This document shows positions 3,947 to 50,416 of a stretch of DNA of 64,000 nucleotides, one piece after another; the stretch's first letter is position 1; each line of letters starts with the position of its first letter. The DNA is from a virus: IMG/VR virus record IMGVR_UViG_3300037454_000319; one strand, 5' to 3'. The position numbers and the translations under genes were made by a program. Under the pieces are notes generated by a model. It saw only the letters and a list, made by a program, of their open reading frames with translations. It made no database searches and was not told the origin of the DNA.

Positions 3947-4576
3947 TTATCCCCAAGTCCATTTATATCCATAAGCACTTTTTCTTTTACCTCTACAAAC
4001 TGAAGAAATATGAGAAGAAGCACCATTGGAAGTTGTAGTTATTTTTCCCAAAGCTATTGCTGCAGCCTTAGCCGATGGAAAAGATTGTATATATTCGCCA
4101 TCAAGAGAATACTGATTTACAATTTTACCATTAACTTTTTGACTAACTTGACTATGAGAAATTATATTTATTCCTTTTTCTTTAAGGATTAAATAAACAC
4201 TGTCAGCAGAAATATTCATAATTCTTGCAACTTCTTTACAATTCAATGTAGCTTTATATGTTGCTACCACTAAATCGTAATCAATATAAGGACGACCATC
4301 GCCGCCAGTTGTTGCATTATAACCATTTTTAAAAGAACCATAAAATTCAATCCAATACTTTTCTCTCTCTTCTGGAGAAGAAGTTTCTTCAATTAATTCT
4401 ACTGTAAAATTTTCAACTCCATATTTCTGCATAGCATCATATAAAGGTCTCTTTTCACATCGTTCTTTTAAACTATCTTGACAATGTTCTTTAAATCTTT
4501 CCTGAATGGTTTTATAGGTTTTCCCTATATAAATCTTACCATTGATAAGATTTGTAATTTTATAAACGTATGCCAA
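3947..4576 (-). CDS. GIY-YIG homing endonuclease with C-terminal HTH (NUMOD-like) DNA-binding region
   Basis: N-terminal YKITNLINGKIYIGKT (GIY...YIG), conserved R/E/N; C-terminal ...SSHISSVCRGKRKSAYGYKW motif; located in tRNA array like T4 segB. Confidence 0.8.
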   Translation of the reverse strand: MAYVYKITNLINGKIYIGKTYKTIQERFKEHCQDSLKERCEKRPLYDAMQKYGVENFTVELIEETSSPEEREKYWIEFYGSFKNGYNATTGGDGRPYIDYDLVVATYKATLNCKEVARIMNISADSVYLILKEKGINIISHSQVSQKVNGKIVNQYSLDGEYIQSFPSAKAAAIALGKITTTSNGASSHISSVCRGKRKSAYGYKWTWG

Positions 4577-5068: not shown

Positions 5069-5155
5069 TGGTCGGCAGGGAAGGACTCGAACCTTCGATG
5101 TTTCAATGTCACGGATTTACAGTCCGCTGGTTTCGCCGCTTTCCACACCTGCCGA
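5069..5155 (-). tRNA. tRNA-Tyr (GTA), long variable arm
   Basis: 87 nt, loop CTGTAAA. Confidence 0.6.
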
Positions 5156-9287: not shown

Positions 9288-9992
9288 TTAACCTACCTTC
9301 CTTTTCTTAGCGAAGAAAACTGTTTTCGTATCATAACCATATGGCTCAAAGGCTTCGTCTAACTCATCAACTTCTCTTATTTGCTGTGGACCAAGCTTGT
9401 GAGTAATTGTATCTGTAAGCTGGTCATACTTAGCAAAATGGAAATCCCAGTCTGTGCCACGGTAGGCAATTCCATATTCATCAGGGTTGAGTTCATCAAA
9501 AGACTCAATTCTTCTCATGTCTGGAAATGCTTTAAGCATATTAAGGGCGGCGAGTTCCAGTGCCGTCTCTGAGCTGTAATCATGATGCCAGTACAACTGC
9601 TCTGCTTCGTCCATTTCCTCTTCCGAAGCATCGTCGTGAATATCACTTAGTAAATCATAGACATATTCAAGTCCATTATCGCTTTCTCTATCTACATAAT
9701 ATTGAAGTTCAAATTCTGCATCATCATATTCTTCACTCTCATAGAAATCATTAAAATCTGCATAGTTGTGCTCTTCAAGCCAACTTGCGGAAGCATTTTC
9801 TCTTACAGTGCTATCACAAAGTATTGGAAGAAACCAATTGTAAGTTTCAAGAGCATAGCCGCCGCAATTATAAAGAAAGTTATCTGTATTATCTGGTGTA
9901 CGACAATTACTATTATTGTAAAGGTCTTCAATATCACCCTCAAATCCAATCTCTGGAACGAGAGTTGAGTTTACAGCATACACACAGGTCAT
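9288..9992 (-). CDS. hypothetical acidic protein
   Basis: ORF track. Confidence 0.5.
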   Translation of the reverse strand: MTCVYAVNSTLVPEIGFEGDIEDLYNNSNCRTPDNTDNFLYNCGGYALETYNWFLPILCDSTVRENASASWLEEHNYADFNDFYESEEYDDAEFELQYYVDRESDNGLEYVYDLLSDIHDDASEEEMDEAEQLYWHHDYSSETALELAALNMLKAFPDMRRIESFDELNPDEYGIAYRGTDWDFHFAKYDQLTDTITHKLGPQQIREVDELDEAFEPYGYDTKTVFFAKKRKVG

Positions 9993-13717: not shown

Positions 13718-14848
13718 TTAATCCTCCTTTGGCAGTTCTATCTTAAATAATGAAATGAACTTAGATGTGGTCATATCAGTAAATAAAGAATCTAAACGAC
13801 CGTCAAAAGCAGCGAAGTAAAGTGCCGCAGCCTTGTTCTTTCCGAAGTCCTGCGCGAACCACTTACGAGCAGTACGGTCGCCCTCTCCAAATGGGTGCTC
13901 CTTCTTCCATAATGATACAACTCTCTTTATTTCATATACTAATATATCTATTGCTTCAAGCTGTAATCTAACCTTAGTAAATGTATCCTCATACTCAGGA
14001 AAGTATGATAAAAACTCTGCGTCATCATTCTCACGAATTAAATCTACAATACGCTCTAAAGTAATTACTCCGTTGTTCTTTGCCTTGTGCATTTGGAAGT
14101 AAAGTAAAGTCTTAATCTTAACACGCTCATAGTTCTTGTCACATACAACAATACCTTCATGACCTTCAGGCATATTTGCGACAAGCTGACGATATTCTGC
14201 TTCATCTTCAAGGAGATATGTCTTAGGACAGCTAACTCCTAATTCTTTTGCAATTTGCCGAGCCGCAGGAGTTTCGTGAAGGTCTTCAGATAGCATATTA
14301 CGTGCAGAAAGAAGATATACCTTAGTCTCAGGATAGTCAATAACAACCTTGTTATAAGGAGATACAAGCTCGAAAGTTAAGCAATAAGGCTCATAACGGT
14401 TACCCACGAAGGCGGATAGAGGAAGTACAGACTCGAAGAGGTCTCCGAAAGTCTTATAAGGACCTACGCCGTTAAGCTCAGCCTTGAAAGCATCTATCTT
14501 GCCGTTTGTTGATATATGCCACTTGCCGCGAGCAAACCATACAGACATTATAGAGCCATCTATCTTCTCAGATGCAACGGCAGTATCCCAGTCTATATGA
14601 GCTGCATAGGACTCGTCTATATTGAAGAACTTCTTGAACGCATAGCGAACTACCTTGAAGTCATCACGAGCATCAAGGATAAGACCACGAGCCTCGCGGC
14701 AAATTTCCTCGTTAAAGTCAGAGTCTATCTGGCTATACTTGAAAAGAACGAAGCCGTCGTCCTCAGAAATTTTTAAGTTGTAAGGCGCATCAGCTAAAAG
14801 TTCACGCCAGTTATCATGTGCAAGGATAAACTCCTGTATTTTTAACAT
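13718..14848 (-). CDS. ATP-dependent RNA ligase, T4 Rnl1-like
   Basis: nucleotidyltransferase motif I EKIDGS (KxDG); ~375 aa like T4 Rnl1; genome rich in tRNA and other RNA-repair genes. Confidence 0.55.
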   Translation of the reverse strand: MLKIQEFILAHDNWRELLADAPYNLKISEDDGFVLFKYSQIDSDFNEEICREARGLILDARDDFKVVRYAFKKFFNIDESYAAHIDWDTAVASEKIDGSIMSVWFARGKWHISTNGKIDAFKAELNGVGPYKTFGDLFESVLPLSAFVGNRYEPYCLTFELVSPYNKVVIDYPETKVYLLSARNMLSEDLHETPAARQIAKELGVSCPKTYLLEDEAEYRQLVANMPEGHEGIVVCDKNYERVKIKTLLYFQMHKAKNNGVITLERIVDLIRENDDAEFLSYFPEYEDTFTKVRLQLEAIDILVYEIKRVVSLWKKEHPFGEGDRTARKWFAQDFGKNKAAALYFAAFDGRLDSLFTDMTTSKFISLFKIELPKED

Positions 14849-24278: not shown

Positions 24279-25211
24279 TTATCTATTCTTAAGCATATCT
24301 CTTACATATGTCATTGTAAGTGAACCACAAACCTTACCGAAGTTCTCGCAAGCGGTAACTACCTCTGGCTCCTCCTTACGGCAGTCCTCATACATCATCT
24401 TAGGAAGAACCTTTGCAATCGCACTCATGTCATGCTCGTCCCAATCAGGTCTGAGTTGCCCCTCGTCCACAAGCTTCTGGAGACACTTCTCAACTCTACG
24501 CTCAGTAGCGATTGATGCGACATACTGTCTCTCAGCCTCTCTCTTCTTAAGCTCCTCGGGGTCAACAGGCTTCTTATGGTCATGATGAACCTCAGAAAAC
24601 TTCTCTGCGACAATCTTGAGGTATGTAGGAAGTCTATTGCTCTTGTCATCAAGTCTATCCTGAGACTTAATTACAATACCCTCACCGCAAGGCTCTGCTC
24701 CGAGCATTGTTTGACCAACAAGCTCATATACAGTATCCCAACCTCTGAACTCGCCTGTGTAGAAAACAGGTACGAAACGGATTACTTGCTGTGTAAGCTG
24801 TGCCGCCTTCTCAAGTCCATTAAAGATTGCAAGTGTGTCGATATGTGGAAGGTATTGCTCAGTCTCAGTATCCCATACGTCGAACATATAGAAGTTCTTG
24901 TACTTGTCATCAGGATAACGGATAGTATGCTTTGTAAGCCACTCACCGAAGATTACGTATCTGCCGTGCTGAGTGAGCATGTCAATTTGAGATACCTTAA
25001 GTTGCTGTGCCCAATTCCAAAAACCATTGAGGTTATTGCTCTCATTGAGCTGGTTCTTACGAGAAAACGCAAGAACAGTATTTGTGTCGGGGTCGTATGT
25101 GAAGGAAGCGTTTGAACCGTCAACCTTCTCAGTAATTGTTATCTGCTCTCCAATGGTAAAAGCAACATCGTACTTCTCCTTGAAGCGCTCAATATCCATG
25201 TAATGCTTCAT
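24279..25211 (-). CDS. nucleotidyltransferase ligase, Rnl2-like RNA ligase (or ATP-dependent DNA ligase)
   Basis: motifs I EKVDGSN, III YVIFGEWL, IV EGIVIK, V YLKIVAEK. Confidence 0.55.
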   Translation of the reverse strand: MKHYMDIERFKEKYDVAFTIGEQITITEKVDGSNASFTYDPDTNTVLAFSRKNQLNESNNLNGFWNWAQQLKVSQIDMLTQHGRYVIFGEWLTKHTIRYPDDKYKNFYMFDVWDTETEQYLPHIDTLAIFNGLEKAAQLTQQVIRFVPVFYTGEFRGWDTVYELVGQTMLGAEPCGEGIVIKSQDRLDDKSNRLPTYLKIVAEKFSEVHHDHKKPVDPEELKKREAERQYVASIATERRVEKCLQKLVDEGQLRPDWDEHDMSAIAKVLPKMMYEDCRKEEPEVVTACENFGKVCGSLTMTYVRDMLKNR

Positions 25212-26764: not shown

Positions 26765-27178
26765 TTACTGGAAAGCGTTTTTGTTTTTAAAAGTATCTGA
26801 GTTCATTTCTTTTTGAAGCTGTCTTAAAACTTCAAATCCTGTCGTATCAAGCCAGTAATTCTTTTCAACCAAAATTTCTTGTGTAAGTTCAACAGGAAAT
26901 CCCATTGTATCAAACATTGTAAAACCAACGAAACCAGATACAACATTATCTCCTATAAATGGAGAAAGAACAATTGAGTCTTCATTTCGTCTTATTGATA
27001 AATGAGATATAACATCATTTTTGACTGTAAATATTCTATCTGTGTCAAGATAAAATTGGGTTTCATTTTTATTCTGTTTTGTCTTTGTAATTGTGCCGCC
27101 CACTGATAAAATACAGTCATTCTTATTAAATCTAAATATCACATGGCGGCCTTTCAGCATACCAAAATTATATTTCAT
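26765..27178 (-). CDS. hypothetical protein
   Basis: ORF. Confidence 0.5.
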   Translation of the reverse strand: MKYNFGMLKGRHVIFRFNKNDCILSVGGTITKTKQNKNETQFYLDTDRIFTVKNDVISHLSIRRNEDSIVLSPFIGDNVVSGFVGFTMFDTMGFPVELTQEILVEKNYWLDTTGFEVLRQLQKEMNSDTFKNKNAFQ

Positions 27179-29803: not shown

Positions 29804-30289
29804 TTAACTATATTTGTAAGCAACAAAAATAACGTTTTGGTCTTTCTCAATTTCCTCAAGTACACTTTTCATAATTGACCAGTCGCCGCCACCAAGACCG
29901 CAACCAAAATAACAAGGTATTGCTATTGGAATTTGGTTTTCCCAGTTACAATGTTCACTACATCTCCAATTCTCTATTTCATTAGTAAATGCTTTCTTAA
30001 CTGCATCATAATCAGTATAACACTTATCTGTACCATAATCTTCTTGTCCGAAAACATTCCAAATACATCTATTTTCGTCAACACGATAATAGCATACAGT
30101 TCCAAGAGGTGACTCGCCATAGTTACACTCTTTATAATCTTGAATAAAAGTAGCATATTCTTTAAACACATTTGGATAGCGGTCTCTTATCTGCTTTGCT
30201 AAGCCGCCACCCATAACTCCTTTACAGTTGACTTGATGAGCTATGATTTTAATATCTGTATTTAATAAATCACCATGTGTAATTATCAT
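29804..30289 (-). CDS. macro-domain protein (ADP-ribose binding/processing)
   Basis: MIITHGDLLNTDIKIIAHQVNCKGVMGGGLA classic macro motif; RBS GGGAGGAA. Confidence 0.65.
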   Translation of the reverse strand: MIITHGDLLNTDIKIIAHQVNCKGVMGGGLAKQIRDRYPNVFKEYATFIQDYKECNYGESPLGTVCYYRVDENRCIWNVFGQEDYGTDKCYTDYDAVKKAFTNEIENWRCSEHCNWENQIPIAIPCYFGCGLGGGDWSIMKSVLEEIEKDQNVIFVAYKYS

Positions 30290-30624
30290 TCTCGTTCCTC
30301 CCAATTTACAATTACTCTGAAACAGTCTGGTATGTCATATCCATGGAGAACATGATAATCTGCTTTATACCCAACTGATGCATATATGGTCACAAGGTCA
30401 TCAGCAATTTTTCTATTCTCTTCTGTAGTATTTCCTTGTGGCCATATATCTACTGAAGCTTCAGTCATTCCACTAAAACTACATTGAGCAATTTCATTTT
30501 TTAATTTCTCATTATACACCCATAAATCTCGCATTACCTTATCAGAAAAATGCTCTGTCCTCATTCTTGCCAATGTTATATCATAAGCACCAATACTATC
30601 CCAAAAAGCATTAAAACTATTCAC
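30286..30624 (-). CDS. hypothetical protein
   Basis: ORF. Confidence 0.45.
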   Translation of the reverse strand: MNSFNAFWDSIGAYDITLARMRTEHFSDKVMRDLWVYNEKLKNEIAQCSFSGMTEASVDIWPQGNTTEENRKIADDLVTIYASVGYKADYHVLHGYDIPDCFRVIVNWEERE

Positions 30625-33343: not shown

Positions 33344-33436
33344 TGGCGCCTACTCTCGGACTCGAACCGAGACACCGCTTGCGCGACTACTACTGGTTTT
33401 CAAGACCAGTCCCTTACCAGTTAGGGTTAAGTAGGC
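33344..33436 (-). tRNA. tRNA-Ser (TGA), long variable arm
   Basis: 93 nt, loop CTTGAAA. Confidence 0.6.
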
Positions 33437-33491: not shown

Positions 33492-33568
33492 GTTGCCCAT
33501 GACGGACTCGAACCATTATTCTCCCTACTTTCGTAGGGCGTAAACACCATGTATACTACATAGGCAAT
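33492..33568 (-). tRNA. atypical tRNA-like gene (acceptor GCCTATG/CATGGGC, TA at 8-9, GNRA hairpin CCCTAC-GAAA-GTAGGG, T-loop GGTTCGAGTCC)
   Basis: cloverleaf-like fold but anticodon loop CGAAAGT lacks U33. Confidence 0.3.
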
Positions 33569-33859: not shown

Positions 33860-33936
33860 TGGTCGGAGCGGCGGGATTCGAACCCGCAAGAAACTGTTTT
33901 TGAGACAGCCGTGTCTGCCAATTGCACCACGCTCCG
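33860..33936 (-). tRNA. class-I (short variable arm) tRNA with anticodon CAA (Leu codon UUG)
   Basis: acceptor CGGAGCG/CGCTCCG perfect, A73, loop CTCAAAA, 5-nt variable loop. Confidence 0.5.
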
Positions 33937-33939
33937 ATT

Positions 33940-34015
33940 TGGGTGGAAAGATGAGACTCGAACTCACACCTTCATGGGCCACAACCATGCGCTCTACCGT
34001 TAAGCTACTCACCAC
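33940..34015 (-). tRNA. tRNA-His (GTG)
   Basis: loop TTGTGGC, C73. Confidence 0.5.
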
Positions 34016-34170
34016 ATCAATAAGACATACTATTGCGAACTTGCCGTATGTCAGGGCGGCTCATTTAATTTCTCCTCGTTAGGGATGTGCCGCGATGCCA
34101 TAACCGCGGAGTTGTCATATTGATTCTCCCAAACCAATAGGACGTAATAAAAATGCAATTGCCTTTCGGC

Positions 34171-34244
34171 TGGTCGGCACAGGAAGATTCGAACTTCCGC
34201 TCCTTTCTTGTAAGGAAAGGTGACTCCCTTTATCGTATGCGCCG
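34171..34244 (-). tRNA. tRNA-Val (TAC)?
   Basis: loop CTTACAA; atypical D-arm. Confidence 0.4.
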
Positions 34245-34271
34245 ATTAACAAGACTCTTTATACCTTTACG

Positions 34272-34345
34272 GTCCGGAAGAGGGATTCGAACCCTCATAT
34301 GTACGATTTTAGGTCGTATGACTTAGCCACTTTGTCTATTCTGGA
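34272..34345 (-). tRNA. class-I tRNA with anticodon TAA (Leu codon UUA), C33
   Basis: stem TACGA/TCGTA, loop CCTAAAA. Confidence 0.4.
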
Positions 34346-34494
34346 AAGAAATGTTGCTGAAGAGTCTTTAATTTGGTTCGGGTATGCTTATCGGAGTCAA
34401 GTACTCGCAGTTCCTCTTTCGAGGTATTTTCTTCGGAGTAAAGACCTTAAGGTTCGCGTAACCTCTTGTGCCCTAACCCATATCCGAAACCCGA

Positions 34495-34571
34495 TGGTGC
34501 CGATAGAGGGATTCGAACCCACACTGTCCAGTTCCTAAGACTGGTGCCTCTACCAATTGGGCTATGTCGGC
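34495..34571 (-). tRNA. class-I tRNA with anticodon TAG; D-arm and anticodon arm resemble bacterial tRNA-Leu(TAG) but long variable arm absent
   Basis: GCCCAATTGGTAGAGGC + CCAGTCTTAGGAACTGG, A73, 77 nt. Confidence 0.5.
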
Positions 34572-35546: not shown

Positions 35547-35632
35547 TGGTCGGCTCGGTGGGACTCGAACCCACATGCCCTTACGGGCACCAGAACCTTA
35601 ATCTGGCGCGTATACCAATTCCGCCACGAGCC
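35547..35632 (-). tRNA. tRNA-Leu (AAG), class II with Leu-type variable arm; A34 unusual for bacteria
   Basis: 86 nt, loop TTAAGGT, variable arm GCCCGTAAGGGCA. Confidence 0.5.
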
Positions 35633-35711
35633 GTTGGTTGCTGATAAAGTCCAGCTTACTACATATCTGTCTTTAATAAACGAGGACAACATTTGTTCTT
35701 ACACTCGTAAG

Positions 35712-35872: not shown

Positions 35873-36490
35873 ATTAATTCTTGACAACTTTATAAAAAGA
35901 ACATTGTCGGTTTTTATTCGCCGTACTCATACAACGCTGCACATTATTCAGTCACAGTGGCGATAAGTCTGAGCCCCAGAGCCGTCGCTCTGAAACTTCT
36001 TACCGCGAGTCCGAAGACTCCAAGCACTGAGGGGAATCTTTCTACCCCCAACTTTCACCCATCATTCAGAATTTGATAATTATAATACTTTCTATCATCA
36101 AAACCAAATCTGAGCCTTGGGCTACTCGTACCACCATCGGGTTTCCTTTCCATTTCTGAAAAGGTTATAGGCTCAACCCCATTGCTTTGCATTCCCTGTA
36201 TTTGCTCACATCTTGCGGACGTGGTCTGCAGGGTTCTTCCCATCTGGGCGTCTATTGTTGGGGCAACCAGTTTAGGTGTACCATTGCTTCACGTTGCACC
36301 TGTGCCACTACTTCTTCATTGGTGGCTGGTATACCACCTGCCCATATCCCCTTTCGGTTCAATGGCCGCTCCCGTTTTGAGGTATCCCTCTGACGAAAAC
36401 GAGACAGTTCCATAGTGCCCATGCAGAGTTGATTAGACCCTCATTTTAACACATGGTTACAACATACTTTTTATGAAGTTGTCAAGATAA
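35873..36490 (-). ncRNA. ~620-nt GC-rich (~48%) noncoding island between tRNA-Ala and a tRNA fragment; possible TTGACA-N17-TTGTAA promoter near 36440-36470
   Basis: no ORF >62 aa in any frame; many GC hairpins; adjacent HNH endonuclease. Confidence 0.3.
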
Positions 36491-36491
36491 G

Positions 36492-36560
36492 TGGTCGGCG
36501 AGATGGGATTCGAACCCACACTGAATGGATTTTCGTACTACTCTATATCGCTATAGCCGC
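36492..36560 (-). pseudogene. tRNA 3'-fragment / pseudo-tRNA (GTGTGGGTTCGAATCCCATCTCGCCGACCA)
   Basis: good T-arm and CCA but 5' half not tRNA-like. Confidence 0.4.
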
Positions 36561-36608
36561 ATAATGCGTTGTAGTCTGGACTTAGTCTTTACCATATTCA
36601 TATAGAAC

Positions 36609-37124
36609 TTAGGTAGCTGGTGTAAAGTCTCTACACATAGATTTTAGACGTACATTTCTACCACGATAAGTTTCTGTAAGAGCATGACAATTTGGGCATA
36701 AATAACGAAGATTAGATAATTCATTATTAGTATTATCTCCATCAATATGGTCAATTTCTAATGAAATTATCCCACCTTGCCAAGAACCATCACAACCACA
36801 ATTAATACATTTATAATCAAGAAGTTTATATCTTTCAACATATCCTCTTAATCCTTTTTGGCTAATTGGGCTGTTTTTAATGAAGACTTCTTCTAATGTA
36901 TATTTCTCTTTACGTTTAAGTGAAGCATTATCATCTTTTGTAAGACCTTTACTCCAACCTTGACCTTTAAAATGAGAAACATCAATTCCAAATTCTTCAA
37001 TTTTGTTCTTTAGAGTTTTTTGTGCTCCACCGCCTTGTGCACGTCCCGATTTTCTCAGAACTTCTGCATAAGAAAAGCTTTCTGCACAAACTTTCTCTAA
37101 CCACTCTTTAGTATATTTCTGCAT
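36609..37124 (-). CDS. HNH homing endonuclease
   Basis: C-terminal EIDHIDGDNTNNELSNLRYLCPNCHALTE HNH motif; sits in tRNA region. Confidence 0.75.
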   Translation of the reverse strand: MQKYTKEWLEKVCAESFSYAEVLRKSGRAQGGGAQKTLKNKIEEFGIDVSHFKGQGWSKGLTKDDNASLKRKEKYTLEEVFIKNSPISQKGLRGYVERYKLLDYKCINCGCDGSWQGGIISLEIDHIDGDNTNNELSNLRYLCPNCHALTETYRGRNVRLKSMCRDFTPAT

Positions 37125-37420
37125 TTTATCACCTCAATTATAAGGTAGGAAGACGCAGAAATTACTCAAAACTTTTCGTCTGCCTAAAATCCTTGCACGG
37201 CGTTCTGTGTTCGCCTTCGCCGTTTTAGCCAGCTTCTACTCTCAGAGTTTTCCTCTGAGGCACTCTCTACTATTGAAGTAGCATTACATAGTAACAGAAC
37301 ACATCAAAGTCCATTGCCTCTGCCTGTTGCGCTACTCGCCGTTTGGTTGCCATAAGGTTCGCAAGCCACACATCAACTTTTTATTAAAGTGAGAGTTTCA
37401 TTTGTTCTAAAACTCACTAT

Positions 37421-38790: not shown

Positions 38791-38884
38791 TGGCGCGGAG
38801 AGAGGGACTCGAACCCTCGCGGCGGTTATTAGCCGCCCTACTCCCTTAGCAGGGGAGCCTCGTCACCAACTTGAGTACCTCCGC
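38791..38884 (-). tRNA. tRNA-Ser (GCT), long variable arm
   Basis: 94 nt, loop CTGCTAA. Confidence 0.6.
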
Positions 38885-40870: not shown

Positions 40871-41788
40871 TTAGTGCGCTGCTCTATCTGCTTCGTTAAG
40901 TAATGCAAGGTGTGCCATAAATTCTGCATCAAAACGCTGAGCAAGTTTCTCTACATAACCAGACTTATAGTGGTCCATATGGTGTTGAATTAAGTTTGCA
41001 ATGTATAAGCTCTGCCACTGGTCTGATGCATGAGATAAGTACATATATGCACTAACGTTTTCGTGATTGTAGTAGTGAGCTTCTTCTGTCGGCTCATTAC
41101 GTGCATTATGGAATACCTTACAATAAGGCTTTCCAAGGTCATGATAACGTGCCGCCACCTGAATCCACCAGAACTCTGCCCCTGGCATACGGTTATTGAG
41201 CTTAAGTTCCTGACGCTTTCTCTTTATAATGAAGTCCTCTGCAAGAACCATGTGGTGTCCGATTGTCTCAGAATGGTGGTGATTATCATGGGAAATTTTC
41301 ATTGCCTTAGCAAGTTCATCTTCCAAATATTCATTATCTAATGAGTTACCGTACATAACGATTTCATCCCAACCCTCAGACTCATGTGGCACTTCGAAGT
41401 TTCTCAACATACGGTCAAGAGCATAATCAGGAACTTGACGCTCACGACCTGCATTCTGCTCCTTCACAACCTCGAAAGGCGGCACAACAAGTACGCAAAT
41501 CTTTTGAACATTAGGAATATGTGAAAGTTCCTTTAATAAGTTAATACGACGCTTAGCATTAATGTTTGTTGCATCATAGAATACATCTGCACCCGCCTTT
41601 AAAAATTCTCTTGTTCTCTTTAACATTATGTCAAATACTTCGCCATTATGCTCTTGGTCATTTACATCTCCGAATACTTCTTCACGAATTGCATCTGAAG
41701 AAACATACTCAGCATATAAATAATTTTCAGCATAAACCGTGGACTTACCAGCTCCTGCAATGCCAACAGCCATATAAAATCTTGCCAT
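40871..41788 (-). CDS. polynucleotide 5'-kinase (P-loop) fused to HD phosphohydrolase domain; putative RNA-repair kinase-phosphatase
   Basis: Walker A GIAGAGKST; HD motif HSETIGHHM...HDLGK. Confidence 0.6.
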   Translation of the reverse strand: MARFYMAVGIAGAGKSTVYAENYLYAEYVSSDAIREEVFGDVNDQEHNGEVFDIMLKRTREFLKAGADVFYDATNINAKRRINLLKELSHIPNVQKICVLVVPPFEVVKEQNAGRERQVPDYALDRMLRNFEVPHESEGWDEIVMYGNSLDNEYLEDELAKAMKISHDNHHHSETIGHHMVLAEDFIIKRKRQELKLNNRMPGAEFWWIQVAARYHDLGKPYCKVFHNARNEPTEEAHYYNHENVSAYMYLSHASDQWQSLYIANLIQHHMDHYKSGYVEKLAQRFDAEFMAHLALLNEADRAAH

Positions 41789-45716: not shown

Positions 45717-46430
45717 TCATGTGTTTGGCTTATCAAGTGCTATTAATAATACATCATTAAATAAAATGCGTGTATCTGCCGCCATCATATCTTTATGATA
45801 ATGACCGCAAAAATGCTTTTGATAAATAGCCTTATCCAAAATTCTGTCGAGCCTTTTATCAGAAATTGTCGGTTCAAAGCCAAGATAATTACAAACCTTT
45901 GAACCTCCAGTATGACTGAACACAAAATCTACTGTGCCGCCAGCCCTCTCCAAATTGATTTCGGCGACGGCAATGTTCTCTTCGGTAATCTGCTCCTGCT
46001 CCCACCAAGACTCGTGGGGCCAACGATAACGCTTACCATTAACGAAGATGTCATGTGACTCTGCTCCATTAACAACAAGGCACTTCTGACCGCAAAGGTC
46101 ATATACCTTGCCACTTATTGCATAGAAAATAGAGTCAGCAACTTGATAACACATCTCGCCACCGAAAGTTGTTGTTGGAAGGTTCTCAATTCTATCATAG
46201 TTTTCGTGATTACCAAGTACACAAAAAGTAGTCCAAGGCTTAGAATTAAGCCAATCTATCCACCACTGTTCTCTTGGTGTACTCTTATCCTTAGACCAGA
46301 TAAGACCTGCGTCACCCATTATAACGAGTATATCATCTTTAGTTAAACCATCACATTTAAAATGTGCAGTATTAAGTTTATCAATATTAATGCTCTGGTG
46401 TATATCACCAGTTACGAATAATCTTCTCAT
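45717..46430 (-). CDS. calcineurin-like metallophosphoesterase
   Basis: GDIHQ...GDAG...GNHE motifs. Confidence 0.6.
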   Translation of the reverse strand: MRRLFVTGDIHQSINIDKLNTAHFKCDGLTKDDILVIMGDAGLIWSKDKSTPREQWWIDWLNSKPWTTFCVLGNHENYDRIENLPTTTFGGEMCYQVADSIFYAISGKVYDLCGQKCLVVNGAESHDIFVNGKRYRWPHESWWEQEQITEENIAVAEINLERAGGTVDFVFSHTGGSKVCNYLGFEPTISDKRLDRILDKAIYQKHFCGHYHKDMMAADTRILFNDVLLIALDKPNT

Positions 46431-46580: not shown

Positions 46581-47621
46581 TTATCCTTTTCTAATGTTAT
46601 ATCCATATTGGTCAGAGTGATAGAACTCAATCCAGTATTTTTCTTTTTCAGTCTGCTCTTCTTTTGGACAAACTTCAACTATTTCCCAAGTAAAGTTTTC
46701 TAATCCTTCATCAAACATAGCGTCATATATTTGACCGCTTATACGCTCGATATTACAACCGCGCTTCGCATGGGTGCGCCAACGGTCAATGAACTTGGTA
46801 GTCTTACCAATATAAACCTTTTCGTTATTTATGTTGGTAATCTTATAAATGCCGCCCTTCTCTTTATTTTCTCCAAGAACTTGTTTGAAAAGATTTTCGA
46901 TTGCTGTTTTATAGTAAGTCTCATATAAAAGTTTGTAGAATATCTCAGGGCGGGAAAACCCAGGCGCCATCGACTTCAGCTTCTTAATATCGCTCTCAGA
47001 AAGAGAGTCAATAGTTATGTGATAGAAGTCACGTTGTTTTCTAAGTTCTTCATCTTTCTTAAACTGCTCAACGATTGCTGCTTGTTTTTGTTCAAAGGCT
47101 TTAATTTCTTCAGTCAACGCCGCCTTTTTCATATTTATCTCGTCGCTGAAGTTCAAAAAATTTACACGGAGTTCCTCCTGTTTCTTTTCATAATCAGCAT
47201 TGAGACAAGCAAGTTTAGCTTCTCTTGATTTTGTTGCTTTAGAAATTATCTCGGCGTTTTCTTTCTGACGTTCAAGTTCAAGTTGTTCGTCCATTTCTTG
47301 ATAGCGCTGACGAGTTTTTTGATAATCTTCCTCAAGTTGCTGTGCCGCCTCTTGATAAGACTTTTCCTTATAATCATATTCTTTCTCTACTTCATGTAAA
47401 GCTTCTTTCTTTTTCTGAATAACTGCTTCAATTTCATCGGACATTTCCTTTTCTGTCGCAGTTTTCTTTTCAACCAGCTCTTGCTTAACTTTCTGCTGTT
47501 CTGCGGTAAAGTTAATAGACTTACTCCACTTCCTTGCAGCCAAGTAATCGTAGCCAGCGTGGAGTAAAACGCCGACTACTAAACAGGCTATACCAATTAA
47601 AATAATCATTATCGCTTGCAT
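46581..47621 (-). CDS. N-terminal TM helix + long coiled coil + C-terminal GIY-YIG nuclease domain
   Basis: C-term GGIYKITNINNEKVYIGKT...YWIEFY paralogous to 3947..4576 N-domain. Confidence 0.6.
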   Translation of the reverse strand: MQAIMIILIGIACLVVGVLLHAGYDYLAARKWSKSINFTAEQQKVKQELVEKKTATEKEMSDEIEAVIQKKKEALHEVEKEYDYKEKSYQEAAQQLEEDYQKTRQRYQEMDEQLELERQKENAEIISKATKSREAKLACLNADYEKKQEELRVNFLNFSDEINMKKAALTEEIKAFEQKQAAIVEQFKKDEELRKQRDFYHITIDSLSESDIKKLKSMAPGFSRPEIFYKLLYETYYKTAIENLFKQVLGENKEKGGIYKITNINNEKVYIGKTTKFIDRWRTHAKRGCNIERISGQIYDAMFDEGLENFTWEIVEVCPKEEQTEKEKYWIEFYHSDQYGYNIRKG

Positions 47622-49372: not shown

Positions 49373-50311
49373 TTATTGATAATAGAAGTGGTTCTGGTAC
49401 CCATCGCCCCACCAGCTATTATCTGAATTGAACTCATTAGTATGAGCAAAGTAATAGTCTACTGCGTCATAGCACGCCTGTGAAGGAGTGCAACAACCTG
49501 GCCAATAACCTGTAAATTGATTTGGCGCTACCAATACAGAATAAACTGTATTTGGGAAACGTGGGTCATTAACGCGGTTCATTACACCAGCAACGACTTT
49601 TGCTTTGTTATACTGACTTATCCAGTTTGAGCCTGCCTCATGCCAAGTAATCTCAGCGAGAAGCTGTCTACTGTAATCATCAATTCCTGCCGCAACAGGA
49701 GTAGGCTCTACATAAGGTGTTATAATTTCTATCTCTGGATTACATTCTGTACATTTTCGACATTCAATTCCTTCTGTTGTTTCAATTTCAATTAACTGTT
49801 CATTCGCCCCAAGGTCTGCATTACACCAATGGCAAGACGCTTTATGAATGTAATGTGTGTTTGGTTTGAAATAGATTTTTTCTTTTGTTACTGCTGAAAC
49901 CTTCGGGTGAGCATTAATATAATGGCTCTTAACACACAAAGGCTCCTCATCAGTAGTCGTAGATATATAGCAGTAGTATGAGAGGATTGCGGAAGCATCA
50001 ACTGAGTCGATACTCCCATCCTCATTTACATCTGCTGCTTTTTTCTGCGCATCTGTTAATATGTTTTTGTCTGTTGAAGAAGCTGCATATGCGCTTAATA
50101 CATATGAAGCATCAATTGCATTTACATATCCATCTCCATTTACATCACCGAGGCTTAGTTCTTTTTCAACAGTTGTTTCCTCAACTATTTCGGTAATAGT
50201 TGTTTCTGAAATAAGATTTTCAGACCCCGCTGTTGTTAACGGTTTAGTTGCCAGCATAAGCGCGATAAATGCTATCACGCATAGGGCTACACATATAATT
50301 TTCTTTTTCAT
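49373..50311 (-). CDS. secreted dockerin-containing SleB/CwlJ-like cell-wall hydrolase
   Basis: signal peptide MKKKIICVALCVIAFIALMLA; two dockerin repeats DVNGDGYVNAIDASYVL / DVNEDGSIDSVDASAILSYY; C-term AEITWHEAGSNW...VVAGVMNRVNDPRFPNTVYSVLVAPNQF (Hydrolase_2-like). Confidence 0.65.
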   Translation of the reverse strand: MKKKIICVALCVIAFIALMLATKPLTTAGSENLISETTITEIVEETTVEKELSLGDVNGDGYVNAIDASYVLSAYAASSTDKNILTDAQKKAADVNEDGSIDSVDASAILSYYCYISTTTDEEPLCVKSHYINAHPKVSAVTKEKIYFKPNTHYIHKASCHWCNADLGANEQLIEIETTEGIECRKCTECNPEIEIITPYVEPTPVAAGIDDYSRQLLAEITWHEAGSNWISQYNKAKVVAGVMNRVNDPRFPNTVYSVLVAPNQFTGYWPGCCTPSQACYDAVDYYFAHTNEFNSDNSWWGDGYQNHFYYQ

Positions 50312-50416
50312 TATAAATTCCTCCTTTTCGGTCCTTTCGGACTTCGAGGGGAACACGCAATTTCGTCTCGCGACGATATATTTAAGTAGATATTTAATGG
50401 GTTTTATCTACAAAAA

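Follow-up and report, generated by a model that had tools for sequence, protein, structure and literature searches.

According to reviews, tRNA-Leu carries a long variable arm everywhere save in animal mitochondria (PMC9976931). In Escherichia coli, leucyl-tRNA synthetase (LeuRS) needs A73 and the tertiary corner of the tRNA, the sequence and folding of the arm are uncorrelated with leucylation, and a minimal tRNALeu without the arm is active unless A73 is changed to C73 (PMC9976931). The only bacterial exception to have been studied, presented as rare, comes from Streptomyces coelicolor, whose single LeuRS charges both a type I tRNALeu(CAA) and type II tRNALeu (Fan et al. 2019, NAR, PMC6614811). 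We analyzed a 64,000-nucleotide (nt) stretch of viral DNA, IMG/VR record IMGVR_UViG_3300037454_000319 (hereafter the window), in which the tRNA-Leu genes with the anticodons CAA, UAG and UAA, the last of them split by an insert, have the arm reduced to a 5-nt loop. Like the S. coelicolor tRNA, they are short in the variable loop and stand beside a long-arm Leu isoacceptor, and in both the U8–A14 pair and the D/T corner are retained; unlike it, they are phage-borne, cover three anticodons instead of one and are known here from sequence. We consider it likely that the three encode genuine leucine-accepting elongator tRNAs of type I.

In the window ARAGORN called 38 tRNA genes, which all lie on the minus strand and form three clusters (Table 1). 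A sequence-only reading of the same DNA had folded three short genes with Leu anticodons and one long-armed Leu gene by hand, allowing that the folding could be wrong. The ARAGORN cloverleaves gave the same folds and the same anticodon loops, and the Rfam tRNA model (RF00005, gathering score 29) scored all four: 55.5 bits for CAA, 58.6 for UAG, 54.3 for AAG and 48.6 for an odd gene with a UAA triplet that we treat separately below, with E-values from 2.5e-7 to 4e-10. The four genes lie where that reading placed them, but it missed a fifth, a class I tRNA-Leu(UAA) at 36492-37341 split by an intron. In all four short genes (CAA, UAG, the odd gene and the spliced UAA), the variable region is 5 nt long and stemless, and the Leu triplet occupies positions 34–36 of a regular 7-nt anticodon loop (CUCAAAA, CUUAGGA, CCUAAAA and CUUAAAA, respectively). 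The three unsplit ones have a 3-bp D stem and an 11-nt D loop (CAAUUGGCAGA, AAAGUGGCUAA, CAAUUGGUAGA), the typical D arm of tRNA-Leu, and their first description as class I genes with Leu bodies minus the arm held for the variable loops, the D arms and the identity set of the family (for the departures of the odd gene, see below). Among the Leu genes the long arm is kept only in the AAG gene; it is the sole class II Leu gene in the window, as had been claimed, because the remaining ARAGORN calls hold no other unsplit tRNA with a Leu anticodon. The absence of the arm from the short Leu genes is thus a confirmed observation and not an artefact of folding.

Table 1. Positions of the tRNA genes, intron parts and other coding features of the window considered in the text
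Feature	Position	Strand	Source	Remarks
tRNA-Tyr(GUA), class II, 86 nt	5069-5154	-	ARAGORN	
T4 Rnl1-like ligase	13718-14848	-		possible RNA-repair/RNA-related
Rnl2-type ligase (PF09414)	24279-25211	-		possible RNA-repair/RNA-related
Alanyl-tRNA synthetase fragment	26765-27178	-		possible RNA-repair/RNA-related
Macro domain	29804-30304	-		possible RNA-repair/RNA-related
tRNA-Ser(UGA), class II, 93 nt	33344-33436	-	ARAGORN	internal control, long arm kept
tRNA-Leu(CAA), class I, 77 nt	33860-33936	-	ARAGORN, Rfam	C1-G72, A73, CCA encoded
Non-canonical tRNA-like gene, 75 nt, class I size	34271-34345	-	ARAGORN, Rfam	UAA triplet in loop CCUAAAA
tRNA-Leu(UAG), class I, 77 nt	34495-34571	-	ARAGORN, Rfam	A73, CCA, G37, variable loop ACAGU
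tRNA-Leu(AAG), class II, 87 nt	35547-35633	-	ARAGORN, Rfam	A34, loop UUAAGGU, C1-G72, A73, CCA
tRNA-Leu(UAA), 3' exon	36492-36533	-	homology	A35 A36 A37 A38, 3' strands of anticodon stem and acceptor, variable loop UCAGU, T arm, A73, CCA
tRNA-Leu(UAA), intervening sequence, 773 nt	36534-37306	-	homologues at same site	
HNH endonuclease ORF, 171 aa	36609-37124	-	Pfam, BLAST	sits in loop of P8-equivalent stem
tRNA-Leu(UAA), 5' exon	37307-37341	-	ARAGORN intron mode, homology	acceptor 5' strand through C32 U33 U34
tRNA-Ser(GCU), class II, 94 nt	38791-38884	-	ARAGORN	
AAA_33	40871-41788	-		possible RNA-repair/RNA-related
Metallophosphoesterase	45717-46430	-		possible RNA-repair/RNA-related

The CAA gene has the variable loop UUCUU, a D arm of GUG/CAAUUGGCAGA/CAC and canonical pairing in every stem. 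For the UAG gene, the reported likeness to bacterial tRNA-Leu(TAG) was borne out: in an arm-by-arm comparison with E. coli leuW, the stretch spanning the D and anticodon arms is identical at 28 of 35 positions in the same register, and the 13-nt variable region of leuW is replaced by 5 nt. Global alignment scores of the gene against other E. coli tRNAs gave no discrimination, and a BLAST search of 5,426 E. coli genomes was uninformative, returning one weak match to tRNA-Thr (E 0.6). The CAA, UAG and spliced UAA tRNAs all carry A73, A14, A15–U48, G18G19, A20a and the 3-bp D stem with an enlarged D loop. It had been proposed that the armless isoacceptors could be charged differently; for CAA and UAG this is unlikely, as the known bacterial LeuRS determinants are all kept. 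Class I tRNAs with NAA or NAG anticodons also offer no obvious handle for other synthetases.

In four metagenomes we found contigs that match the window at 100%, including one of 158,845 bp; these thus held no variation to compare. Syntenic relatives were reached through homologues of a DUF2828 protein encoded next to the window tRNAs, by protein database search and contig look-up. The four loci obtained, L355, L357, L361 and L359, encode DUF2828 proteins 94%, 83%, 64% and 61% identical, respectively, to that of the window. A search of IMG/VR for the DUF2828 protein locus gave no related loci, and BLAST of the tRNA region against INPHARED gave tRNA-sized matches only and no close phage relative. 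The armless CAA, UAG and UAA genes and the armed AAG gene are retained in the tRNA clusters of the relatives, apart from the CAA and AAG genes of L359. Where stem pairs vary, they do so largely on both sides: all seven varying pairs of CAA (against L355 and L361) show compensatory double substitutions, as do 8 of 10 in UAG (five phages), and 6 of 8 in the canonical UAA gene (syntenic relatives) are changed on both sides, while A73, A15 and U48 are fixed in all three. Because their stems evolve by compensatory change in related phages, we read CAA and UAG as genuine Leu-accepting tRNAs; the compensatory pattern in CAA, UAG and UAA is the one that would be expected of working tRNAs. In L359, the CAA isoacceptor at the syntenic site (9698-9782) is class II and 85 nt long. 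Its D and T arms match those of the window AAG gene and no AAG gene was seen in the L359 locus, which looks like an anticodon switch or a class swap inside the lineage.

The armless form is not a peculiarity of this window. We scanned IMG/VR with a pattern that joined the Leu-type D loop to an anticodon loop for Leu and required the T loop to be close by; it matched at least 120 loci. In the 120 loci listed, ARAGORN called 240 Leu-anticodon tRNAs, 228 of them no longer than 80 nt, while every Ser tRNA (183/183) and every Tyr tRNA (68/68) of the same loci was longer than that. A scan neutral to arm length listed 120 matches, about 40 of them armless (29 with a 5-nt loop and 11 with 6–8 nt) and about 80 armed, a ratio that is a rough guide only, among the matches listed; many of the armed matches were in loci with one or two tRNAs. 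Among cultured phages, BLAST with the UAG gene matched 97 records over 80% or more of its length, among them Felixounavirus phages (whose hosts are E. coli, Salmonella and Shigella) and phages of Streptomyces, Pseudomonas and Microcystis; the annotated matches are tRNA-Leu, and over 63 nt the window gene shares ~90% identity with the tRNA-Leu genes of Streptomyces phages. Felix O1-type coliphages have three such armless genes, and the tRNA-Leu(UAG) of T5, checked as a possible model, is class II with 85 nt. In a bacterial scan with one genome per species, the matches listed were from Actinomycetota, Cyanobacteria, Acidobacteriota, Planctomycetota and rumen Clostridiales metagenome-assembled genomes (MAGs); half of the listed loci had one tRNA only, the others being arrays with as many as 29 tRNAs in 8 kb. 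Armless tRNA-Leu is a widespread family trait, found in phages, in tRNA arrays and in bacterial assemblies (many from Actinomycetota), and the loss hits only the class II isotype whose bacterial synthetase does without the arm. In the literature searched we found no description of the prevalence or the Leu-specificity of arm loss in phage and array tRNAs, and the tRNA-array papers found leave variable-arm length unmentioned. The short genes of the window seem to belong to the known type I kind of tRNA-Leu, the extent and the Leu-specificity of arm loss in phage and array tRNAs being what seems new.

De-duplication left 290 armless Leu sequences, of which 112 are viral and 178 come from genomes. 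A73 occurs in 100 of the viral and 166 of the genomic sequences (266/290) and U48, the partner of A15, in 106 and 171 (277/290); A14–A15 and the 3-bp D stem are each found in 93/112 and 158/178. The armed Leu tRNAs of these loci show matching proportions. Among 83 sequences that share the exact layout of the window genes, 7/2/3-11-3/1/5-7-5/5/5-7-5/7, U8, A14, G18, G19, A20a and A73 are invariant and A15 and U48 reach 99%, and most stem pairs (all except the last T-stem pair) show between two and six kinds of pair. The search pattern contained the D-loop motif but neither A73 nor U48. The data show that, in this window and at hundreds of other loci, selection maintains armless Leu bodies that carry the whole bacterial identity set. 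The LeuRS of S. coelicolor is reported not to use A73 (PMC6614811), whereas A73 is nearly invariant in the armless family.

We propose that bacterial LeuRS reads A73 and the corner of the D and T loops (A14, A15–U48, G18G19 and A20a) and not the arm, and that the arm can be lost for this reason; the LeuRS of the host would then charge the CAA, UAG and spliced UAA tRNAs. SerRS and bacterial TyrRS use the variable arm, which would be why, within these clusters, tRNA-Ser and tRNA-Tyr still have theirs, so that arm loss would occur only where the synthetase allows it. Several points weigh against this proposal. ARAGORN takes the isotype from the anticodon only. The UAG copy in the window has two non-canonical pairs, C6·A67 and U50·U64, which are absent in L355 and L357, and the conservation of the D loop across the armless set is partly built in because the motif belonged to the search pattern. 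Arm-independence is also not universal among bacterial LeuRS, because the enzymes of E. coli and S. purpurogeneiscleroticus do not charge the S. coelicolor type I tRNALeu(CAA) (PMC6614811); set against the armless Leu genes of Felix O1-type coliphages, the rejection by the E. coli enzyme is a complication for a simple model of tolerance. The other described armless group, animal mitochondrial tRNA-Leu, is alike in having a short variable loop, a Leu anticodon and A73 and A14 as identity elements (PMC9976931). It is relaxed in structure and has a dedicated mitochondrial LeuRS, whereas the phage genes have canonical bacterial D and T loops (G18G19, UUCGAAU) and G+C-rich stems. That a form held to be exceptional in S. 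coelicolor is common here, with the full identity set, raises the questions of what kinds of LeuRS take armless tRNAs, whether losing the arm gives protection from tRNA-directed defence and whether tRNA gene finders miss tRNAs of phages.

The one armed Leu gene, tRNA-Leu(AAG), has a variable region of 14 nt with a 4-bp stem. Its A34 is conserved in four phages (window, L355, L357 and L361), and the pair 31–39 changes from A–U to C–G in L361. The sequence-only reading took A34 to be normal in bacteria for Arg only, a view now out of date: tRNALeu(AAG) is known from several Firmicutes, and in Streptococcus pyogenes and Oenococcus oeni it is edited to I34 by TadA, in the former completely and by a TadA with a widened substrate range, while the E. 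coli TadA does not edit it (PMC11472039). The window loop, UUAAGGU, fits the TadA context YUAMGRA at six of seven positions and that of L361, CUAAGGA, at all seven, position 38 being U in the window and A in L361. The gene is an already known variant. It is like the tRNALeu(AAG)/I34 of Lactobacillales in being class II with a genomic A34 and a YUAAGR loop, here paired with a preference for CUU, and differs in being phage-encoded, so that editing would rest on a putative host TadA; no deaminase domain was found among the window open reading frames (ORFs) scanned. In 78 minus-strand ORFs of the window, Leu is encoded by CTT (43%), TTA (29%), CTC (11%), TTG (9%), CTA (5%) and CTG (3%). Since CUU and CUC make up 54% of the Leu codons, the AAG tRNA appears to serve the main Leu codons of the phage, probably after host TadA has edited A34 to I34. 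UUG would be read by the CAA tRNA, CUA and CUG by the UAG tRNA, and UUA by the UAA tRNA after removal of the intron, presumably by self-splicing. As to termination, the 78 long window ORFs stop with TAA in 56 cases, TGA in 21 and TAG in one. Two tRNAs with a CUA anticodon are found in each of L359 (5402-5477 and 6418-6494) and L361 (1834-1909 and 1913-1989), and the window has none; stop codons may be recoded in the wider lineage.

Arm loss could alternatively be a counter-defence. The arm would have been shed because defence nucleases of the host or of a rival phage recognise or cut the long class II arm, and translation would continue when the host tRNA-Leu is destroyed. Escape from an arm-directed nuclease is plausible by analogy: PtuAB, of Septu and retron-Eco7, cleaves tRNATyr in its variable loop, and the tRNATyr of T5 resists because its variable loop is different (PMC13096335). 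The window genes are like T5 tRNATyr, and like T5 tRNALys in the case of PARIS, in that all are phage isoacceptors differing from those of the host in an element that a nuclease recognises or, for the window genes, might recognise. In the T5 cases, however, both nuclease and resistance have been shown experimentally, whereas the likeness of the window genes is drawn from their sequence and the armless form is also common outside phages. The literature searched held no arm-directed nuclease acting on tRNA-Leu, and the one bacterial Schlafen studied shows no class II preference. The window has ORFs for an Rnl1-like and an Rnl2-like ligase, AAA_33 (a P-loop kinase fold) and a member of the metallophosphatase family, which could be an RNA-repair set and as such would suggest that tRNA damage matters to the phage. 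As escape from nucleases would have it, phage clusters and tRNA arrays often contain armless Leu tRNAs, but such genes also stand alone in many bacterial assemblies, often from Actinomycetota; the class II tRNA serves the Leu codons that the window uses most, and the Ser and Tyr arms are kept in the same clusters, although the constraint from the synthetases could account for the latter. We regard counter-defence as a rather unlikely cause and retain charging by an arm-tolerant LeuRS as the preferred explanation.

The canonical armless tRNA-Leu(UAA) is split between U34 and A35 by a 773-nt insert containing an HNH ORF. No exon nucleotide is lost at the insert: the exons, when joined, give the same sequence as the intact 77-nt gene in L361, and the intact orthologue of L355 matches them at 100% over nt 1–27 (5' exon) and nt 46–77 (3' exon). 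The intact genes of the relatives are armless and 77 nt long with C1–G72, A73 and CCA, and lie between tRNA-Met and ROOL RNA. Because of the intron, the gene is invisible to default ARAGORN and Rfam. ARAGORN in intron mode detects it with the boundary one base off, giving a GAA anticodon; UAA results from placing the boundary after the exon U, with the intron ending in G. Applied to all loci, the intron mode made hundreds of chimeric false calls in tRNA arrays, which we discarded.

We think it likely, on indirect evidence, that the insert splices as a group I intron. Group I introns in tRNALeu usually sit at position 34/35, HNH-bearing ones being known from Bacteroidota assemblies (PMC13011429), and the junctions, ...CUU/UGAUG...GUACG/AAAA, show an exon U before the insert and a terminal intron G. 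The HNH ORF matches Pfam weakly (HNH at 22.5 bits, cut-off 21.4; HNH_3 at 24.0 bits, below its cut-off of 24.8), and its product has 1247 homologues at E<=1e-10, the BLAST matches being phage HNH homing endonucleases. At five independent loci, an HNH homologue lies within a homologous insert at the same site of tRNA-Leu(UAA); the interrupted tRNA lacks the arm in L362 and has it in L365, L367 and L369-371. An exact 19-mer from the S-like element of the window insert is absent from IMG/VR. A conserved core motif of the insert led to 12 further IMG/VR loci, 10 of them with both boundaries and an armed tRNA-Leu(UAA) as host, giving about 17 independent tRNA-Leu(UAA) loci, armed and armless, with homologous inserts at one site. 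In every homologue with both boundaries located, the site, the preceding U and the terminal G hold. Some inserts lack an ORF and measure 256 nt (L373) or 342-349 nt, and in ORF-carrying members of the core-motif subfamily the ORF stands elsewhere, after P4'. The non-coding parts are conserved across hosts whose exons and ORFs have diverged. Several hairpins covary, and a long-range pairing GUGUUC/GAACAC shows the double change GUAUUC/GAAUAC in L362. The group I model RF00028 aligns over its full length to the ORF-less 256-nt insert of L373, with P, Q, R and S in register (25.5 bits, E 1.2e-4, below the gathering score of 50), and P3 (AGCUGG/CCAGCU) and P7 (GAGUA/UACUC) can be read from the homologue sequences; the window insert is 95% identical to that of L373 over 80 nt and 82.5% over 63 nt.

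The insert might instead be a homing-endonuclease cassette that merely disrupts tRNA-Leu(UAA) and leaves the phage reliant on the tRNA-Leu(UAA) of the host, and several results weigh on that side and against an intron. Rfam gave no group I match to the window insert, whole or in halves, or to L383, so that the sole match is sub-threshold and to one homologue. An automated search for stems in six introns, which was noisy, assigned no convincing P1 and no clean P7 in the subfamily of the window, where P7 has a central G·G if aligned as in the ORF-less subfamily. The minimum-energy fold of the insert with the ORF deleted is not exceptional (z = -1.93). Against simple disruption, which is quite improbable, stand the placement at the classic tRNA-Leu(UAA) group I site, the flanking U and terminal G, the completeness of the exons, the covarying non-coding parts, the ORF-less versions and the alignment of the core elements to RF00028. 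A spliced group I intron, which we prefer, would resemble those in tRNA-Leu(UAA) of cyanobacteria, plastids and Bacteroidota in its 34/35 site, the preceding U, the terminal G and, for some, the HNH ORF. It would differ in being on a phage, in having an armless host tRNA (window and L362) and in being too divergent for the RF00028 threshold. According to a 2014 review, every phage intron then known interrupted a protein-coding gene, although phages have many tRNA genes (PMC3984707). Should the insert splice, it would be a case of a phage tRNA gene with a mobile group I intron, a location that the review called unobserved.

Other structured RNAs occur at some of the intron loci. In the window, a ROOL RNA (RF03087, 263 bits) lies inside the tRNA cluster at 35889-36480 (minus strand), directly downstream of the split gene, and L373, the locus of the ORF-less homologue, also has a ROOL copy (290 bits). 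In L376, a RAGATH-33 RNA (126.8 bits, 1029-1157) immediately follows the intron-containing tRNA-Leu(UAA).

The odd gene with the loop CCUAAAA had been read as a further Leu isoacceptor. Its anticodon loop and class I fold stood, and its D arm is Leu-like, but it is not a standard isoacceptor, because it has C33, the discriminator C73, an A4·C69 mismatch and no encoded CCA, which all other regular tRNAs of its cluster encode. The Leu identity set fails in it at A73 (C73) and A20a (U), and among the 290 unique armless Leu sequences C73 is found in one and C33 in 12. Versions of the gene are present in all four relatives. Across the five phages the D, anticodon and T stems differ by compensatory changes, which argues against simple decay, and the unusual traits are mostly kept (C33 in four of five, C73 in four, an acceptor mismatch in all, being A4·C69 in three, and the lack of CCA in all); the central triplet is UAA in four and AAA in L355. 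The gene encodes a conserved, non-canonical tRNA-like RNA of its own that is probably not an ordinary Leu acceptor, and our guess is that its role is non-translating. The possibility that the loop is that of an amber suppressor (CUA) was rejected on geometry, as CUA cannot sit at 34–36.

A bolder version of counter-defence would draw this gene in as well: the tRNA-Leu of phages and mobile arrays would have repeatedly and selectively shed the arm against arm-recognising nucleases, and the odd gene, with its C33, C73 and A4·C69, would serve as a decoy or sensor outside translation. We hold this to be doubtful; if true, armless tRNA-Leu would be a marker for an unrecognised class of arm-directed anti-phage tRNases. 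That the short genes are not Leu tRNAs in function, and instead carry another amino acid, act in recoding or suppression or are decaying pseudogenes, is very improbable: the peculiarities of the odd gene point that way, with C73 abolishing leucylation of the minimal E. coli tRNALeu (PMC9976931) and the triplet varying among close relatives, as do the CUA tRNAs of L359 and L361 and the near disuse of TAG as a window stop, but CAA, UAG and spliced UAA keep the invariant LeuRS determinants, compensating stems, U33 and a regularly placed anticodon, none of the 38 window tRNAs has a stop-reading anticodon (CUA, UUA or UCA), and even the odd gene preserves three of its stems by compensation.

The 149-nt spacer between tRNA-Leu(UAG) and the odd gene (34346-34494, minus strand) is ~90% conserved by eye in L361, has an equal-length counterpart in L357 and is absent from L355; its minimum-energy fold is no better than that of shuffled sequence (z -0.76). 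A second odd tRNA-like gene, at 33492-33566 (minus strand), has a 6-nt anticodon loop, CGAAAG, as if a Phe loop had lost U33, together with irregularities in the acceptor stem and no CCA; the version in L357 has an 8-nt loop. It lies ~430 nt upstream of the gene for the 482-aa DUF2828/vWA protein, labelled 'RNA-binding protein' in PHROGs, homologues of which adjoin armless-Leu tRNA arrays in L161, L274, L295 and L120.

Some further features of the tRNA sets were noted. C33 is very frequent in armless Leu(GAG) tRNAs (loops YCGAGRN), found in the bacterial loci L242, L249, L251, L258, L263, L282, L294, L299, L323, L330 and L349 and the viral locus L059; outside the window, all C33 cases are Leu(GAG) but one, a class II CAA tRNA in L124. 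A G1·U72 wobble atop the acceptor stem is very common in phage-associated Leu tRNAs of either class: among the viral sequences, 54 of the 112 armless ones and 40 of the 118 armed ones have it; in the window, Leu CAA, Leu AAG, split Leu UAA, Val and Pro have C1–G72 instead. The Leu-type D-loop motif AATTGGTAGA also occurs in 45 tRNA-Glu(UUC) genes of viral loci (e.g., L002 8320-8399), which are up to 80 nt long.

Among the other ORFs of the window, the match to alanyl-tRNA synthetase (PF01411) is a 137-aa fragment. The ORF at 49373-50356 (minus strand) has type I dockerin and cell-wall hydrolase domains, which points to a cellulosome-producing Clostridia host such as Ruminococcus; a Clostridia host is in keeping with the rumen origin of related MAG contigs. 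ORFs resembling GIY-YIG homing endonucleases are found within or near the tRNA clusters, at 3947-4576 (also with NUMOD1) and 46581-47621 (minus strand), a position like that of SegB beside the tRNA genes of T4 and T6.

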